Part shown: positions 1 through 6,047 of the stretch, piece by piece
How positions within the stretch are numbered: the stretch's first letter is position 1
Layout of the letters: each line of letters starts with the position of its first letter
Virus record (IMG/VR): IMGVR_UViG_2681813004_000006
Coordinates: 1-6,047 of that record
Direction: 5' to 3' (one strand)
DNA: 6,047 nt
Origin: a virus
Taxonomy: Duplodnaviria > Heunggongvirae > Uroviricota > Caudoviricetes
Made by a program: the position numbers and the translations under genes
Notes under the pieces: generated by a model
Database searches by the model: none
What the model was told of the DNA's origin: nothing
Seen by the model: only the letters and a program-made list of their open reading frames with translations

Positions 1-1
1 C

Positions 2-409
2 ATACTGAAGCAGCGCACAAAAAATCTTGCGCCGCTGCCTCACGCCCACCAGCAAAACCCGCCACAGGAAAAGACGGTGGTCAGCATTGCCGTTGATCCT
101 GAGTCTCCGGAATCTTTCATGAAACGACCTAAACGTCGCCGCTGGGTTAACGAGAAATACACGCGCTGGGTGAAGACACAGCCGTGTGCGTGTTGTGGTA
201 AGCCTGCTGACGATCCGCATCACCTGATTGGTCATGGTCAGGGGGGAATGGGGACAAAGGCCCACGATATTTTCACGTTACCGTTGTGCCGGGAGCACCA
301 CAACGAACTTCATGCAGACCCGCTGGAGTTTGAGAAAAAGTACGGCTCTCAGATTGAGTTAATTTTTCGTTTTCTTGATCACGCCTTTGCGACTGGCGTG
401 CTCGGGTAA
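2..409 (+). CDS. DUF968/HNH-like prophage protein (YdfU-like), C-terminal part; frame is open to the window edge so the gene is probably 5'-truncated by the window
   Basis: Frame of the 77..409 ORF has no stop back to position 2. Cys/His-rich motif CACCGKP...HH...H...HH resembles the C-terminal HNH-like region of DUF968 proteins that commonly precede rusA in lambdoid prophages (recalled, not searched). The GTG at 77 could instead be a true start. Confidence 0.65.
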   Translation: MLKQRTKNLAPLPHAHQQNPPQEKTVVSIAVDPESPESFMKRPKRRRWVNEKYTRWVKTQPCACCGKPADDPHHLIGHGQGGMGTKAHDIFTLPLCREHHNELHADPLEFEKKYGSQIELIFRFLDHAFATGVLG

Positions 410-421
410 AAGAGGTGACTG

Positions 422-781
422 ATGCTCATAGATTTGGTTTTACCTTACCCGCCGACAGTGAACACTTACTGGCGACGTCGTGGCAGCACATATTTTGTAT
501 CAAAAGCCGGGGAGCGTTATCGCCGGGCAGTGGCGCTTATTGTTCGCCAGCAGCGACTGAAATTAAGCCTGTCCGGACGGCTGGCAATAAAAATTATTGC
601 AGAGCCACCGGATAAGCGTCGTCGTGACCTGGACAATATTCTGAAAGCACCGCTGGATGCGCTGACGCATGCGGGAGTGCTCATTGATGACGAGCAGTTT
701 GATGAAATCAATATTGTACGTGGTCAGCCAGTATCTGGTGGACGGCTGGGTGTGAAGATTTACAAAATTGAGAGTGAGTGA
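422..781 (+). CDS. rusA: RusA-family crossover junction endodeoxyribonuclease (Holliday junction resolvase)
   Basis: 119 aa, the typical RusA length. Motifs LPxPPTVNTYWRR..., ...PDKRRRDLDNILKAPLDALT..., and GGRLGVKIY match my memory of E. coli RusA. Strong SD AAGAGGTGA 6 nt upstream of the ATG at 422. Confidence 0.9.
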   Translation: MLIDLVLPYPPTVNTYWRRRGSTYFVSKAGERYRRAVALIVRQQRLKLSLSGRLAIKIIAEPPDKRRRDLDNILKAPLDALTHAGVLIDDEQFDEINIVRGQPVSGGRLGVKIYKIESE

Positions 782-1320
782 GCGTAAATATGATATATCC
801 GGAAATTACAGGCAAAAGCGGCGAACATTTACGCCTGAACACGCTGGAAGCAGTCTGGATCCAGGGGAAATTACGGATGTGGGGGCGGTGGTCGTATATC
901 GGTGGGGGTAAATCCGGAAATATGTTTAACCGGTTACTGGTTTCGAAAAAGCTGACGAAAACAGCAGTTAATGAGGTTTTACGCAGCATGAAGAAATCCG
1001 GGCTGGAAAAACCGGAACTTGAGGCATTTTTTCGGGATATGACCAGAGGGAAGCAGAAGAGCTGGTTGTCACATTGTACAGACACAGAGGCGTTGATTAT
1101 TGATCGCGTTATCAGTGAGGTGCTTGGGGAATATCCCGGGCTAATCAATATTCTCCGGCAAAGGTACGAAGGACGGGGAATGAGTAAGAGAAAAATGGCA
1201 GAATGTTTAAATCGTACTCACCCGGAATGGTGTTTCAGCACATGTGAGAAACGTATTGCAGGTTGGTTAGCCGTGGCTGAACACATGCTTTATGTACCTA
1301 TGCACGATTCATTTCGATAA
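778..1320 (+). CDS. Putative late-gene antitermination protein Q (Phage_antitermQ-like)
   Basis: 180-aa ORF directly after rusA and directly before a promoter/terminator module, the canonical Q position. Contains an RMWGRWSY motif reminiscent of phage-82-type Q proteins (from memory). Start is uncertain: GTG at 778 overlaps the rusA stop (GTGA), or ATG at 790. Confidence 0.6.
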   Translation: MSVNMIYPEITGKSGEHLRLNTLEAVWIQGKLRMWGRWSYIGGGKSGNMFNRLLVSKKLTKTAVNEVLRSMKKSGLEKPELEAFFRDMTRGKQKSWLSHCTDTEALIIDRVISEVLGEYPGLINILRQRYEGRGMSKRKMAECLNRTHPEWCFSTCEKRIAGWLAVAEHMLYVPMHDSFR

Positions 1321-1417
1321 AAAAAGCTTGCTTTTTTACGCAGAAACAGCTTGAATTCCTGTAAGCTTCGCAAAGCTGTATCGCGAGGCGAAATGCAAGT
1401 TTTTTCGCACAAGGAAG
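1321..1417 (+). promoter_or_regulatory. Putative late promoter PR' / Q-utilisation (qut) region
   Basis: About 100-bp non-coding stretch between the Q stop and a strong intrinsic terminator, with TTGCTT and TTGAAT -35-like hexamers and dyad symmetry (AGCTTCGCAAAGCT). Exact -10/-35 not resolved by eye. Confidence 0.35.
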
Positions 1418-1438
1418 CCACCGGAAGGTGGTTTTTTT
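1418..1438 (+). terminator. Intrinsic terminator, tR'-like
   Basis: GC stem CCACC / GGTGG with a GGAA tetraloop, followed by a 7-T run (1432-1438). Confidence 0.7.
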
Positions 1439-1561
1439 GTGTCCGCGATATACAGTAGCGCAATAAATTCGCTGGTGGTTATTAATACCGTTCTTTCAGC
1501 TTGCTGGCTTTTTCGACAAGAGTTATTGGTGTGTCACGTTAACCGGAAAAGGGAAAAAGAC

Positions 1562-1759
1562 ATGCTAAAACAGCAGGATATGACAGAAACCGCCAGAGTG
1601 GTGTTTAATGAATTAAGCGTTACCGAACCGGCGACAGTCGGGGAGATAGCGCAGAATACTTACCTTTCACGCGAACGCTGCCAGTTAATACTGACCCAGC
1701 TGGTTATGGCGGGTCTGGCAGACTATCAGTTCGGTTGTTACAGACGCCTTCCGCAGTGA
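1562..1759 (+). CDS. Hypothetical small protein (65 aa) with a probable winged-helix/HTH DNA-binding fold
   Basis: ATG at 1562 preceded by AAGGGA about 9 nt upstream. The stretch ATVGEIAQNTYLSRERCQLILTQLVMAGLADYQ has a helix-turn-helix-wing pattern. The track ORF from GTG 1439 starts inside the terminator T-run and is unlikely to be the real start. Confidence 0.4.
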   Translation: MLKQQDMTETARVVFNELSVTEPATVGEIAQNTYLSRERCQLILTQLVMAGLADYQFGCYRRLPQ

Positions 1760-1774
1760 AGGCTTTTTTATTTG
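1746..1774 (+). terminator. Candidate intrinsic terminator overlapping the stop of the small ORF
   Basis: Stem GCCTTC (1746-1751) / GAAGGC (1758-1763), followed by TTTTTTATTTG. Confidence 0.45.
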
Positions 1775-1786
1775 TGGTAAATGGGC

Positions 1787-1817
1787 GGCTGGTGGGTGTT
1801 AGGGGCACCCACCAGCC
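1787..1817. repeat. Perfect 12-bp inverted repeat (GGCTGGTGGGTG / CACCCACCAGCC) with a 7-nt spacer; possible operator or RNA hairpin
   Basis: Arms at 1787-1798 and 1806-1817 are exact reverse complements, with loop TTAGGGG. No U-tract follows. Confidence 0.6.
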
Positions 1818-2029
1818 ATCTGCTCATGCGTTGGGTTCACAAGCAAACCTCAGGCCCACTGCTTTGCGCAAAAGCAGAATGAGCCTATCAGAGACAGGCT
1901 TAATGATCCATGCTTAATACTGTAAAAATATCCAGTTGTTAGTTAATCAACGCCGACTGCCTGGAATTTATCCGGTCGTTACCCGAAAATTCTGTTGACC
2001 TGATAGTCACGGACCCGCCGTACTTTAAA

Positions 2030-2959
2030 GTGAAGCCTGAGGGCTGGGATAACCAGTGGAAGGGCGACGATGATTACCTGAAGTGGCAGGACCAGTGTCT
2101 GGCGCAGTTCTGGCGGGTGCTGAAACCTGCCGGAAGTCTTTACCTGTTCTGTGGTCATCGCCTGGCATCTGATATCGAAATCATGATGCGTGAACGCTTC
2201 AGTGTGCTGAACCATATTATCTGGGCGAAGCCGTCCGGACGCTGGAACGGATGCAACAAGGAAAGCCTGCGGGCGTATTTCCCCGTCACAGAGCGCATTC
2301 TGTTCGCGGAACATTATCAGGGGCCGTATCGTCCGAAAGATGCCGGGTATGCGGCGAAGGGCAGTGCACTGAAACAGCATGTGATGGCCCCGCTGATTTC
2401 TTACTTTCGTGATGCGCGCGCGGCCCTGGGGATAACGGCAAAACAGATTGCAGATGCCACAGGAAAGAAAAACATGGTGTCGCACTGGTTCAGTGCCAGT
2501 CAGTGGCAGCTACCGAACGAAAGCGATTATCTGAAATTACAGTCGCTGTTTGCCCGGGTGGCAGAAGAGAAACATCAGCGCGGTGAACTGGAAAAGCCCC
2601 ACCACCAGCTGGTGGATACGTATACGTCACTGAACCGGCAGTATGTGGAGCTGCAGAGTGAATATAAGCATCTGCGGCGGTATTTTGGTGTGACGGCGCA
2701 GGTGCCGTACACGGATGTGTGGACACATAAACCGGTGCAGTTCTATCCCGGGAAACATCCGTGCGAAAAACCGGCAGAAATGCTGCAGCAGATAATCAGC
2801 GCAAGTAGTCGTCCTGGTGATCTGGTTGCGGATTTTTTCATGGGGTCGGGTTCAACGGTAAAAGCGGCGATGGCACTGGGGCGTCGTGCGATTGGTGTTG
2901 AGCTGGAGACCGGACGTTTTGAGCAGACAGTCAGGGAAGTTCAGGATTTAATCGTTTGA
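2030..2959 (+). CDS. Beta-class N6-adenine/N4-cytosine DNA methyltransferase (orphan, phage-type). The homologous reading frame extends upstream to 1943 and to an ATG at 1910, but is interrupted by an in-frame TAG at 1940-1942.
   Basis: Motif IV DPPY is encoded at 2012-2023 (translation ...LINADCLEFIRSLPENSVDLIVTDPPYF...), upstream of the first canonical start (GTG 2030). Motif I FFMGSGST lies near the C-terminus. ATG 1910 gives MLNTVKISSC-TAG-LINADCL... in the same frame. No adjacent restriction endonuclease gene. Confidence 0.8.
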   Translation: MKPEGWDNQWKGDDDYLKWQDQCLAQFWRVLKPAGSLYLFCGHRLASDIEIMMRERFSVLNHIIWAKPSGRWNGCNKESLRAYFPVTERILFAEHYQGPYRPKDAGYAAKGSALKQHVMAPLISYFRDARAALGITAKQIADATGKKNMVSHWFSASQWQLPNESDYLKLQSLFARVAEEKHQRGELEKPHHQLVDTYTSLNRQYVELQSEYKHLRRYFGVTAQVPYTDVWTHKPVQFYPGKHPCEKPAEMLQQIISASSRPGDLVADFFMGSGSTVKAAMALGRRAIGVELETGRFEQTVREVQDLIV

Positions 2960-3008
2960 AACGGATGAGATTGCAGAATTAATTACGCACCATTATTATT
3001 CTGCTTCC

Positions 3009-3084
3009 GGCCCTTTAGCTCAGTGGTGAGAGCGAGCGACTCATAATCGCCAGGTCGCTGGTTCAAATCCAGCAAGGGCCACCA
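3009..3084 (+). tRNA. tRNA with CAU anticodon, ileX/ileZ-like (tRNA-Ile2 by lysidine modification; would be called Met by anticodon alone)
   Basis: 76-nt cloverleaf: acceptor GGCCCTT/AAGGGCC, D-stem GCTC/GAGC, anticodon loop CTCATAA, T-arm GCTGG-TTCAAAT-CCAGC, encoded CCA. Near-identical to E. coli ileX as I recall it. Confidence 0.9.
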
Positions 3085-3085
3085 A

Positions 3086-3161
3086 CCGCCACTAGCCATC
3101 AGGAAAGAGCGTCAACCCTTTAAGTTGAGTGTGCGAGGTTCGAGTCCCCGGTGGCGGTCCA
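3086..3161 (+). tRNA. Atypical or degenerate tRNA-like gene (anticodon loop CCTTTAA, nominal anticodon UUU; identity uncertain, possibly a pseudo-tRNA)
   Basis: Perfect 7-bp acceptor stem CCGCCAC/GTGGCGG (C1-G72), T-loop TTCGAGT, encoded CCA, and a good anticodon stem TCAAC/GTTGA. However the D-stem is GCCA/GAGC with two mismatches, position 33 is C rather than the near-universal U, and the T-stem has an A-C mismatch. Confidence 0.5.
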
Positions 3162-3163
3162 GT

Positions 3164-3239
<76 letters not shown>

Positions 3240-3247
3240 TCAAGTCC

Positions 3248-3282
3248 GGTGGGGTTCCCGAGCGGCCAAAGGGAGCAGACTG
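3248..3282 (+). pseudogene. 5' fragment (about 35 nt) of a tRNA-Tyr gene, lacking the anticodon and 3' half
   Basis: GGTGGGGTTCCCGAGCGGCCAAAGGGAGCAGACTG matches the 5' end of E. coli tRNA-Tyr (tyrT/tyrU) as I recall it; similarity is lost immediately afterwards (ACTCAGTTCATGG...). Confidence 0.65.
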
Positions 3283-3539
3283 ACTCAGTTCATGGCCAAA
3301 AACGATTTCTGTGATAAATATTTTGAATATTATTTACAGGTAAATGGAGTGGGGCACATGGATAGAAATATTACAATAGAGAATGAAGTATATGCCCGTA
3401 TTGTATGGGCAGAGAAGGCAAAAACACGGTAATTCCGTGTGTTGCCATGATACCTGATTGGCAGAATAGTTGTTTGGTTTTGAGTATATAGTCAGCGTTT
3501 TTTGTTCAGTAATTGCTCCCTCAAAAAATAATAAAATAA

Positions 3540-3660
3540 GGTGATTATTTTTGTTTATTATTTAGTTTTTTTTGTGTGTTGTTTTATTGTTTTTGCGTGG
3601 TTTGTTTTTTATTGTTATTTCATTAAGGGAAGGTAAATTCAGGATGGCAGTCTGTAGATA
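3540..3660 (+). promoter_or_regulatory. T-rich, AT-rich upstream region of the PerC-like gene (probable promoter and curved-DNA region)
   Basis: Iterated TTTTTGT / TTGTTTT / TTATTGTT motifs across 3545-3620, directly upstream of the strong SD and ATG of the 3675 gene. Possible -35 TTGTTA (3613-3618) and -10 TAAATT (3634-3639). Confidence 0.35.
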
Positions 3661-3674
3661 ATCGGAGGTCACTT

Positions 3675-3989
3675 ATGCTACATGATCACGTGGCAGAATG
3701 TCTGGAGAAAAAAGGACTGTACCGGAGAGCAGCTGAACGATGGGCAAAAGTGATGGTACAGCTAAGTGATGACCAGAAAAGAAAAGTAGCGGCACAGAAA
3801 CGAGCAGAGTGTTTGCGTAAGGCGCGCCGGACTCCGGTTTCACCGGTGAACCTGACCGAAATAAAACAAGCGGTCAACAGACTACATTCTGAGTTGGGAA
3901 TGGGATTTGAAGAGCGGCGGGTATTCCGACGATATAAAGGGACAGGAGAACAGAATACGTCCGGAAACGCGCGGTCAAAAAAATGCTAA
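3675..3989 (+). CDS. PerC-family transcriptional regulator (Pch-like, PerC homolog)
   Basis: 104 aa. N-terminal motif LEKKGLYRRAAERWAKVM matches the conserved PerC/Pch signature (ekkGlyRRAAerW) as I recall it; basic C-terminus. Strong SD GGAGG 6 nt before the ATG. AT-rich context typical of prophage cargo genes. Confidence 0.7.
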   Translation: MLHDHVAECLEKKGLYRRAAERWAKVMVQLSDDQKRKVAAQKRAECLRKARRTPVSPVNLTEIKQAVNRLHSELGMGFEERRVFRRYKGTGEQNTSGNARSKKC

Positions 3990-4025
3990 AAAATATCTGA
4001 GAGAGTTATTGCCTGTTACCATAAG

Positions 4026-4052
4026 AAAAAGCGACTTTAGTGGTCGCTTTTT
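4026..4052. terminator. Bidirectional intrinsic terminator between convergent genes
   Basis: AAAAA-GCGAC-TTTAGTG-GTCGC-TTTTT: a 5-bp GC-rich stem flanked by an A-run upstream and a T-run downstream, so it can terminate on both strands. Confidence 0.6.
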
Positions 4053-4070
4053 GTGTCATATATAAGTCGT

Positions 4071-4295
4071 TTAAGTAAACCTGTCTGAACAGGTGCTCTG
4101 GTCGTGTTTGTCTTTGTTGGGTACAAATTGAGAATATTTTTCATTAATTAATCTTCTTCTGCAGGCTTCAATAACCCACGCTGAAAAATTACCTGAACCT
4201 TTCAGGTCAAGAGCGATGTTAATTTGTTCAATTATCTGGTTTGGAAATCGGATGTTGCGGGTTGTTGTTCTGCGGGTTCTGTTCTTTGATGACAT
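4071..4295 (-). CDS. Small YlcI/YnfO-like (DUF3950-like) prophage protein, 74 aa
   Basis: Internal ATG (M35 of the 108-aa track ORF) gives MSSKNRTRRTTTRNIRFPNQIIEQINIALDLKGSGNFSAWVIEACRRRL..., resembling DLP12 YlcI as I recall it. A perfect TATAAT on the - strand (plus coordinates 4338-4343) lies about 40 bp upstream. The longer 108-aa form (start 4397) is possible but would begin upstream of that promoter. Confidence 0.5.
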   Translation of the reverse strand: MSSKNRTRRTTTRNIRFPNQIIEQINIALDLKGSGNFSAWVIEACRRRLINEKYSQFVPNKDKHDQSTCSDRFT

Positions 4296-4465
4296 AATGT
4301 TGCCCCGAGGGGTTACATATTGCCAAAAAACTGCTTTATTATATCCCGAATAACGCGGGGATCCTGCTGGTACCATGCTGTCGTGGTGGTTCGGCATTTA
4401 CCCAGGGCGCGGAGGGGACATTCAGTGCGGACACGGGGGCCAGCCAGGATTCGGCGCGCTGGGGT

Positions 4466-5716
4466 GTGGGTAAACCGTTATATCAGGACCTGATTGCGCG
4501 CACCAAAGCTGCATTACAGAAGAACCCGAAAAATGTGTTGCTGGCGGTGTGCTGGATGCAGGGAGAGTTTGACATGAGCGCCGCCACCCACGCACAGCAA
4601 CCTGCGCTGTTTACAGCCATGCTGACACAGTTTCGTGCTGACCTCTCCGTGTTTAACGCGCAGTGCCATGGTGGCAGTGCTGCAGATGTGCCGTGGATTT
4701 GTGGTGACACGACGTATTACTGGAAAAATACATACGCTACCCAGTACGACACCGTGTACGGCGGGTATAAAAACAGGGAGAGTGAGGGCGTTTATTTTGT
4801 GCCCTTCATGACAGACGGTAACGGCGTCAATACCGCCACTAACGCGCCGGCAGAAGATCCGGATATTCCGGCATCAGGATATTACGGTGCGGCATCGAGA
4901 ACGAATGGAAACCAGGTATCATCAAACCGCCCGACACATTTCAGTTCATGGGCGCGCAGGAGCATTATTCCGGATCGTCTGGCAACCGCTATTCTGAACG
5001 CAGCCGGGCGCACCTCAGCCTTCATCAGTGGTAAGGCACCGGAAATCAAACCCTCGCCCGGCGGCAACACGCCATCGGGTCCGTCTGCAGATACGTCCGT
5101 TCGCACAATCTCCCTGCTGCCGGCAGCCGGAGAGGCTGCTGCGCAGGGCTGGAGCATTAAGGATGGCGGAATTCAGTTGTCAGATGGTGTATTTAAGATC
5201 ACCAAGCAGAGCAATAAAACCTGGTCCCTGACGCATCCGGTGGATGACGCAATTACCCTGCTGACACAGGGCGGCAGACTGACCTGTAAGTTCCGCCTGT
5301 CAGGCGCACTGACCAACAATCAGTTCGGGCTGGGGATTTATCTGTATACGGATGCTCCCGTTCCTGATGGTGTGGCGATGACGGGTACCGGTAATCCGTT
5401 CCTGATGTCGTACTTCACTCAGACCACTGACGGCAGAGTGAATCTGATGCATCACAGGAAAGCCGGAAACACGAAGCTGGGGGAGTTCGGCGATTACGGT
5501 AACGACTGGCAGACGCTGGAGCTGGTGTTCACCGCCGGCAGTGCCACGGTTACTCCGAAACTGAATGGAGTGGCTGGCCCGGCATTCCAGGTTATAAAAG
5601 ACAGTCTGACACTGGGACTGAATGCGCTGACGCTGACGGATGTTACAAAAAATGCAGCGTATGGCGTTGAGATAGAAAGTCTGGTGCTGGAGATAAATGC
5701 ACCGGCATCATCATAA
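4466..5716 (+). CDS. NanS-p-like 9-O-acetyl-sialate esterase homolog, N-terminally truncated (SGNH/DUF303 C-terminal half plus C-terminal beta-rich domain); possibly a gene remnant
   Basis: Motifs IPNNAGILLVPCCRGGSAF (upstream, in frame but with no start), [19 protein letters not shown], and [16 protein letters not shown] resemble the central and C-terminal parts of YjhS/NanS as I recall them. The frame is open from 4298, with the first canonical start a GTG at 4466 and no good SD. The N-terminal GQSN catalytic-serine region is absent. Confidence 0.65.
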
Positions 5717-5800
5717 AAAGTGAGCCAGTCAAATGGAAGGTATCGTTAAACTCACCGGTAGTGTCAGTGGGTCGTCTGAGACGCCTGCATGAGTTATCAG

Positions 5801-5834
5801 AGCCATCAGTAGTTAACTGGTGGCTTTTTTATTG
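5801..5834 (+). terminator. Intrinsic terminator upstream of the holin gene
   Basis: 9-bp stem AGCCATCAG / CTGGTGGCT (one G-U wobble), loop TAGTTAA, followed by TTTTTTATT. Confidence 0.55.
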
Positions 5835-5865
5835 TTGTCAGCTTCCGGATAACGGGAGACGGGGT

Positions 5866-6047
5866 ATGTACCAGATGGAAAAAATCACAACAGGTGTGTC
5901 ATACACCACGTCAGCGGTAGGGACGGGATACTGGTTACTGCAACTGCTGGACAAAGTCTCTCCGTCCCAGTGGGTGGCAATAGGTGTACTGGGGAGTCTG
6001 CTGTTTGGCCTGCTGACGTATCTGACTAACCTGTATTTCAAAATCAG
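5866..6047 (+). CDS. Lambdoid class-I holin (S-like), 5' portion; continues beyond the window end
   Basis: Translation [60 protein letters not shown]... matches lambdoid-prophage S holins from memory. Dual-start motif (Met1 and Met4), SD GGGAG 7 nt upstream, hydrophobic TM segments. Not in the ORF track because no stop falls inside the window. Confidence 0.85.

Follow-up and report, generated by a model that had tools for sequence, protein, structure and literature searches.

The late regulatory region of a lambdoid prophage was found to carry, 8 nt behind a tRNA-Thr gene, the first 35 nucleotides of the Escherichia coli tRNA-Tyr gene tyrU (positions 3248 to 3282, plus strand), cut off within the anticodon loop and continuous on its left with host-identical DNA. 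This stub is probably a non-functional recombination scar of captured host DNA; judging from its sequence, it would have entered the prophage as one contiguous host segment, together with the spacer that precedes it. The window, meaning the whole 6,047-bp stretch that was analysed, is the complete contig AOTC01000204.1 of the draft assembly GCA_001447405.1.

Genomic setting

The window reads, in order, a DUF968 gene fragment, RusA, a Q-like antiterminator, a 65-aa ORF, a methylase, the tRNA array, a PerC-family gene, a truncated esterase and a holin. The start of the late regulatory region is marked by the Q-like late antiterminator gene (DUF1133; 790 to 1320, plus strand; PF06576 and PF06530 (weak)), whose counterpart in the colinear O157 prophage is annotated "DUF1133 family protein", and the start of the lysis cassette by a class II holin gene (5866 to 6047, plus strand; PF04971), which is cut by the contig end and is 97.7% identical to EHEC prophage holin genes. 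With its tRNA genes at 3009 to 3239, between the Q-like gene at 790 to 1320 and the holin gene from 5866, the window holds a lambdoid late-region tRNA array, and the slot that follows the array is where Shiga toxin genes sit in Stx phages, with nanS-p and then the holin gene after them. Colinearity with the prophage of O157 strain PA2 extends over window positions 1 to 3229 (94% identity) and 4308 to 6044 (99%). In the PA2 prophage the third tRNA gene is annotated as tRNA-Arg, and the distance from the array to the point equivalent to window position 4308 is about 970 bp, a stretch that takes in the 5' end of nanS-p.

Upstream of the array is a DNA N6-adenine methyltransferase gene (1910 to 2959, plus strand; assigned from its translation and PF01555) with an in-frame TAG at codon 11 (1940 to 1942); its homologue in the colinear O157 prophage is annotated as frameshifted. 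In unrelated sequencing runs, at least two of them (SRR30129186 and SRR17988634), short contigs encode the identical 309-aa product of the reading frame downstream, so that this methylase allele exists outside GCA_001447405.1. Just 3' of the 65-aa ORF, at 1786 to 1850, there is a long G+C-rich inverted repeat (GGCTGGTGGG...CCCACCAGCC) that forms a clear hairpin; its weak match to the Pseudomonas sRNA P26 (24 bits, E = 0.09) is probably due to chance.

Three genes make up the array. The first, with a CAU anticodon, is a homologue of ileZ (tRNA-Ile2; 3009 to 3084, plus strand), called by ARAGORN, scored at 72.5 bits by the Rfam tRNA model and annotated as tRNA-Ile in RefSeq relatives. In the argN position stands an atypical tRNA-like gene (3086 to 3161, plus strand), which ARAGORN calls Lys(UUU) and which fails the Rfam tRNA model, matching the tRNA-Sec model only, at 17.8 bits; among more than 100 arrays, its 1-nt deletion (TAGC-CATCAGG) is confined to the window and to one further contig, L012, which is described below. 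The third gene, tRNA-Thr(UGU) (3164 to 3239, plus strand; ARAGORN; Rfam, 73.8 bits), is 100% identical to thrU of strain K-12.

Identity and extent of the tRNA-Tyr fragment

Alignment with the annotated K-12 genome matched positions 3248 to 3282, GGTGGGGTTCCCGAGCGGCCAAAGGGAGCAGACTG, to the first 35 nucleotides of tyrU at all 35 positions, as the original prediction had proposed from the letters of the sequence; the string occurs once in the window and never in 200 shuffles. The proposed length was exact for the tRNA-Tyr part, but the match as a whole reaches further left, to 3163, where the predicted fragment had stopped at 3248: positions 3163 to 3282 agree at 120 of 120 nucleotides with chromosomal thrU, the 8-nt spacer and the first 35 nucleotides of tyrU in K-12. 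In K-12 the tRNA-Thr(UGU) gene thrU is followed, after 8 nt, by tyrU, and the spacer of the window (3240 to 3247, plus strand; TCAAGTCC) is identical to that of K-12, so the identity is unbroken over thrU, native spacer and tyrU, as a host-derived thrU-tyrU segment would have it. The same 120-nt match fell under "tRNA-Thr | tRNA-Tyr" features in every genome sampled from 5,426 complete E. coli genomes. Because the stub is contiguous with thrU and with the native 8-nt spacer, its source is tyrU rather than tyrT or tyrV; of the earlier idea that host tyrT or tyrU DNA had been captured, the host origin and tyrU are thus retained and tyrT is dropped.

The anticodon arm of K-12 tyrU reads GCAGA-CTGTAAA-TCTGC, and identity therefore breaks after CTG, the last matching base being the first of the GTA anticodon. 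The break, between 3282 and 3283 and within the anticodon loop, is as abrupt as had been predicted and coincides with the edge of an AT-rich island, the G+C content dropping from 0.55 to 0.30-0.36 downstream. The other half of the gene was sought by several means. The 3' half of tyrU has no match anywhere in the window with up to 3 mismatches allowed; ARAGORN calls three tRNAs in the window, all at 3009 to 3239, and none at 3240 to 3340; Rfam at E<=10 reports no tRNA at 3240 to 3340 and none after 3239; and folding of the RNA from 3248 to 3345 gives no cloverleaf, with a z score of -0.6 that is no better than that of shuffled sequence. With neither a recognised cloverleaf nor a 3' half, the window contains no functional tRNA-Tyr gene, which upholds the expectation that no complete tRNA-Tyr could be folded here. 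The stub is most likely a scar without function of its own; at most, it would leave thrU without a downstream RNase P site for 3' processing.

The joints and the displaced pch/ylcI piece

The sequence across the left joint runs ...GCAGACTG, then a single A, then CTCAGTTC.... The A, at 3283, is the base of neither parent: tyrU has T at this position, and in each of the 5 pch copies examined in their usual context CTCAG is preceded by G. Beyond it, positions 3284 to 4307 (plus strand) are a 1,024-bp internal piece of a pch/ylcI module, 99.9% identical to copies in EHEC and EPEC prophages, with a private SNP at 3788. Within the piece lie a 46-aa ORF (3292 to 3432), a group-1 pch gene for a PerC-family regulator (3675 to 3989; PF06069) and, on the minus strand, YlcI/YnfO (4071 to 4295); the matched loci are annotated "PerC family transcriptional regulator" and "YlcI/YnfO family protein", which places the piece among the pch/PerC prophage modules. 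The pch genes of O157 EHEC, which are perC homologues, reside in prophages and prophage-like elements (PMC6265319). The island at the break is thus AT-rich, as was first noticed, but it is a relocated piece of a known prophage module and not an insert of unknown kind. In every other genome examined the module comes after Rz and before the small terminase gene. Its natural left edge, judged from genomes that lack the module, would lie about 84 nt to the left of window position 3284, so that what the window holds is an internal piece, and for the same reason the island was rejected as a cassette with natural ends.

At the right joint, 4307/4308, ...TTGCCCCG abuts AGGGGTTAC... bluntly, inside nanS-p. 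The gene so entered (4308 to 5716, plus strand; PF20350, PF03629) is a nanS-p-type esterase gene (SASA/DUF6645) that has lost its 5' end: the frame is open from 4310 and the first start codon is at 4466, and positions 4308 to 5716 are 99% identical to positions 5709 to 7117 of the full gene in O157 strain PA2. No microhomology was found at either joint, in keeping with the suggestion that an illegitimate event had cut through the tRNA-Tyr gene.

The three new joints are absent from the 5,426 complete E. coli genomes, from 50,697 phage records, from the GTDB species representatives, from IMG/VR except for L012, and from the JGI metagenomes. The exact joint of the window is absent from the genome_contigs and viral_contigs collections and, with the extra base left free, from metagenome_contigs; the pattern of stub plus A is absent from genome_contigs and metagenome_contigs, and in viral_contigs it recurs in L012 only. 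Exact-protein look-ups gave no record for the two ORFs that cross 4307/4308. For the methylase product they returned short Logan contigs only, all ending inside the array and thus providing no independent joint, and look-ups of the 46-aa ORF and the Q-like protein, both of which occur too widely, could not single out independent contigs that bear the joints.

A second contig with the same stub

The only other tyrU stub found is in L012, equivalent to L134, which is contig AOTC01000173.1 of the same assembly, GCA_001447405.1. Their Q regions agree at only 77%, which marks the two contigs as different prophages; a block of 275 nt is nevertheless 100% identical in both and runs from the first tRNA through the A after the stub and includes the deletion in the second tRNA. 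In L134 the stub is cut at the same nucleotide and is joined cleanly to a methylase gene lacking its first ~40 codons, the DPPY motif among them. In 300 complete genomes, natural prophages are colinear with the part of L134 to the right of this joint, and a description of both contigs as carriers of ~1-kb inserts was rejected for that reason. The methylase that follows the stub (8086 to 9018 of L134) starts just past the DPPY motif and is therefore presumably inactive. In the same contig the array is immediately preceded by an AraC-family regulator gene (7067 to 7780; 237 aa, PF12833). The finding of one and the same cut in a second contig of a single assembly raises the possibility of misassembly, and the joint of the window is judged somewhat more likely to be real than not.

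The Thr-Gly arrays of related prophages

An array of Ile(CAU), an atypical, argN-like second tRNA, thrU and glyT is carried by many prophages and temperate phages, in some of which a methylase gene lies upstream. When 106 arrays were gathered through the junction of the second tRNA with thrU, thrU was followed by TAT or TGT and then glyT in 104, and by host spacer and tyrU in the remaining two, the window and L012, which are also the only ones of the 106 to have the 8-nt host spacer after thrU. The array of the window (3009 to 3239, 231 nt) is the commonest Thr-Gly haplotype with one private 1-nt deletion, which fits a recent event. Among the matches listed, all complete genomes that have both the methylase and the array lose homology to the window at 3240.

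The usual joint of thrU with glyT, CCA-TAT-GCGGGC, is the sequence that would remain if exactly 206 nt, comprising the spacer, tyrU and the second spacer, were deleted from the host operon, and the phage copies of both genes are identical to those of the host; on these two grounds, DNA of the host operon had entered the array before. The agreement of three bases at the joint suggests that the Thr-Gly array may be a trimmed copy of the host operon. Pairs of thrU and glyT joined by TAT are seen, for example, at 5065 to 5218 of L007 and at 4166 to 4319 of L010, and among the 104 arrays in loci L013 to L130. Phage JLK-2012, considered as a case of glyT-thrT capture, carries Asn-Thr-Gly and was set aside as uninformative.

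An array with a complete tyrU was found neither in the 5,426 complete E. coli genomes nor in the 50,697 phage records nor among more than 100 IMG/VR arrays. The original prediction had pointed to relatives with a four-gene array (CAU, second tRNA, Thr, Tyr); none turned up, the fourth gene being glyT in the 104 related arrays. Its statement that the phage array once included tRNA-Tyr is accordingly unsupported as it was put, and can be offered as a surmise only, since no array with a complete tyrU occurs in the collections searched.

Origin of the stub

With regard to the order of events and the mechanism, we infer that the ~77 nt of thrU identity between phage and chromosome would have allowed a recombination or replication intermediate to shift onto the chromosomal thrU-tyrU locus, by exchange or by copying, and so to acquire the 8-nt spacer along with 35 nt of tyrU. 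The stretch of host DNA would have ended in the tyrU anticodon loop with a homology-free switch to the 1,024-bp pch/ylcI piece, and a second switch would have joined this piece bluntly within nanS-p; the outcome would be a patchwork in place of the ~0.97 kb that such a prophage usually has there, with the 5' end of nanS-p lost as part of it. One multi-step event of template switching or illegitimate joining, seeded by thrU homology, is modestly preferred over survival of the stub from an older thrU-tyrU-glyT array, because the array is the commonest haplotype with a single private deletion and because no array with full tyrU is present in the data. The older origin is a different order of events within the same favoured explanation and receives the smaller part of its probability: a five-gene array would have arisen by capture of thrU-tyrU-glyT as a whole, most lineages would have deleted tyrU precisely, and in the lineage of the window it would have persisted until one replacement took out the whole stretch that begins with tyrU nt 36 and ends midway through nanS-p. 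The host identity of phage thrU and glyT, and a thrU-TAT-glyT joint of just the form that a 206-nt host deletion would leave, speak for such a relic. Against it are the lack of any full-tyrU array among 104 Thr-Gly arrays, 5,426 genomes and 50,697 phage records, the standing of the window array as the commonest Thr-Gly haplotype plus a private deletion rather than a divergent sister, and a probability of about 1 in 64 that the three bases of TAT agree by chance. Neither the recent capture nor the relic explains why two prophages share the breakpoint.

What weighs against a recombination scar in either form is that everything comes from one draft assembly, GCA_001447405.1, to which the new joints are unique, and that the cut at the same nucleotide with a different partner in the second contig is not what a random illegitimate event would predict. 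An assembly artefact is the chief rival, less likely than the scar but a serious alternative. The assembler or scaffolder would have taken the chromosomal branch, spacer and tyrU, out of the thrU repeat as far as the end of a graph segment and butted the next contig against it. In favour of this, thrU is an exact repeat common to prophage arrays and chromosome, both contigs depart from the array into chromosomal sequence, follow it for the same 43 nt and then change abruptly to other DNA, and all of the new joints are blunt as well as peculiar to this assembly. Graph misjoins, however, arise inside common repeats, and the flanks of each joint share nothing; with no sequence common to the two sides, reads that contain the joints must exist, or else contigs were concatenated without Ns. 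The stub length of 35 nt, moreover, fits no usual k-mer size: k would have to be 35, with overlaps of k bases, or else 36, an even value. The signature of a k=35 assembly graph, a matching SNP pattern 35 nt in from the two ends of the island piece, was looked for there and not seen. The artefact also has to accommodate the private SNP at 3788 in the island copy and a joint at 4307/4308 that is unrelated to any tRNA repeat and yet implies that the island piece has a genuine neighbour on its left. In a mixed case, a single tyrU joint would be real; the assembly graph would then contain a segment, common to prophage and chromosome, that stops exactly at tyrU nt 35, and the other joint could be a product of scaffolding. 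Recurrent or site-specific breakage of tyrU between anticodon positions 34 and 35 would account for one breakpoint with two unrelated right-hand partners in a single genome. Candidate agents are a nuclease or recombinase acting on DNA of the anticodon stem-loop, or, at the RNA level, cleavage of a thrU-tyrU precursor by an anticodon nuclease, with the product then returned to DNA by copying; the break would lie at the site at which colicin E5 cuts tRNA-Tyr. Such a hot spot is nevertheless improbable: the two cases come from one assembly and are not independent, the partner sequences have neither a common core nor an inverted repeat, no integrase, reverse transcriptase or homing-endonuclease gene lies beside the site in either contig, and no further instance was found in any collection searched. 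Least likely are a remnant of an integrase attachment site and a tRNA-Tyr gene split by an intron, with its 3' exon elsewhere, although anticodon loops of tRNA genes serve as targets for integrases and, in bacteria, as sites of group I introns. The stub is a 5' and not a 3' piece, present as a single copy in the late region, with the Q-like antiterminator on one side and the holin gene on the other, rather than at an end of the prophage, and the window has neither an integrase gene nor a second copy; the prophage ends lie outside the contig, and the fragment does not qualify as an attachment-site tRNA duplication, in line with what had been foreseen. Nor does it qualify as an intron-split gene, there being no group I or II intron match (Rfam, E<=10) and no 3' exon, and the DNA downstream being the protein-coding pch module.

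Relation to known arrays, joints and modules

Like the ileZ-argN-argO arrays of lambdoid and Stx phages, the array of the window comes after Q, and after the methylase in those that have one, and is followed by the toxin slot and the lysis genes; positions 3008 to 3161 are 91.6% identical, over the aligned stretch, to Stx2-phage ileZ/argN records. It differs from them in its third gene, a host thrU copy in place of argO, which is followed by host spacer and truncated tyrU. With the prophage Ile(CAU)/argN-like/thrU/glyT array it shares the 231 nt, identical except for the one deleted base, and similar flanks, whereas behind thrU the 104 arrays have TAT or TGT and glyT and the window has spacer and stub. 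With the chromosomal thrU-tyrU-glyT-thrT-tufB operon of E. coli it has 120 identical nucleotides in common, intergenic spacer included, but of tyrU it retains 35 nt only, and its flanks are prophage DNA. Partial tRNA genes at integrase attachment sites are likewise tRNA gene fragments within prophages; those are 3' parts at both prophage ends, next to an integrase gene, and the fragment here is a single 5' part in the late region.

The stub is an ordinary case of the mosaic joints known from lambdoid prophages, where "morons" are placed by illegitimate recombination and then spread by homologous exchange: the joints are abrupt and free of homology, the neighbouring genes are truncated, and an AT-rich accessory module occupies a late-transcribed slot. 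It is set apart in that one side of its joint is DNA of a host tRNA operon, reached through a tRNA gene common to phage and host. If real, it would be a clean example of a tRNA gene shared by phage and host that bridges host DNA into an accessory-gene slot of the phage, and it would show the common Thr-Gly prophage array as a trimmed host thrU-tyrU-glyT operon. For genome scans, short host-identical tRNA fragments in draft prophage contigs call for checks at the level of reads.

The pch gene in the toxin slot

Positions 3284 to 4307 match the group-1 pch modules of EHEC prophages at the 99.9% identity given above; where those modules lie between Rz and the small terminase gene, the window has its internal piece upstream of the lysis genes, in the toxin slot. 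A real joint would thus have placed a pch virulence-regulator gene in the slot that holds the toxin genes of Stx phages, downstream of a Q-like antiterminator gene. In this slot, behind both the Q-like gene and the tRNA array, pch could be read from the late promoter upon induction. The 46-aa ORF at 3292 to 3432 is conserved, is called in 635 blocks of the protein collection, and is unannotated in the five RefSeq loci that were inspected. A rearrangement of the same region is seen in a complete genome, that of O157:H7 strain E32511 (L003; 1328 to 1375 and 4001 to 8137), where IS1203 lies in ylcI, nanS-p is inverted beyond it and the 5' end of ylcI is inverted upstream of the holin gene, an arrangement that looks like an IS-mediated inversion.
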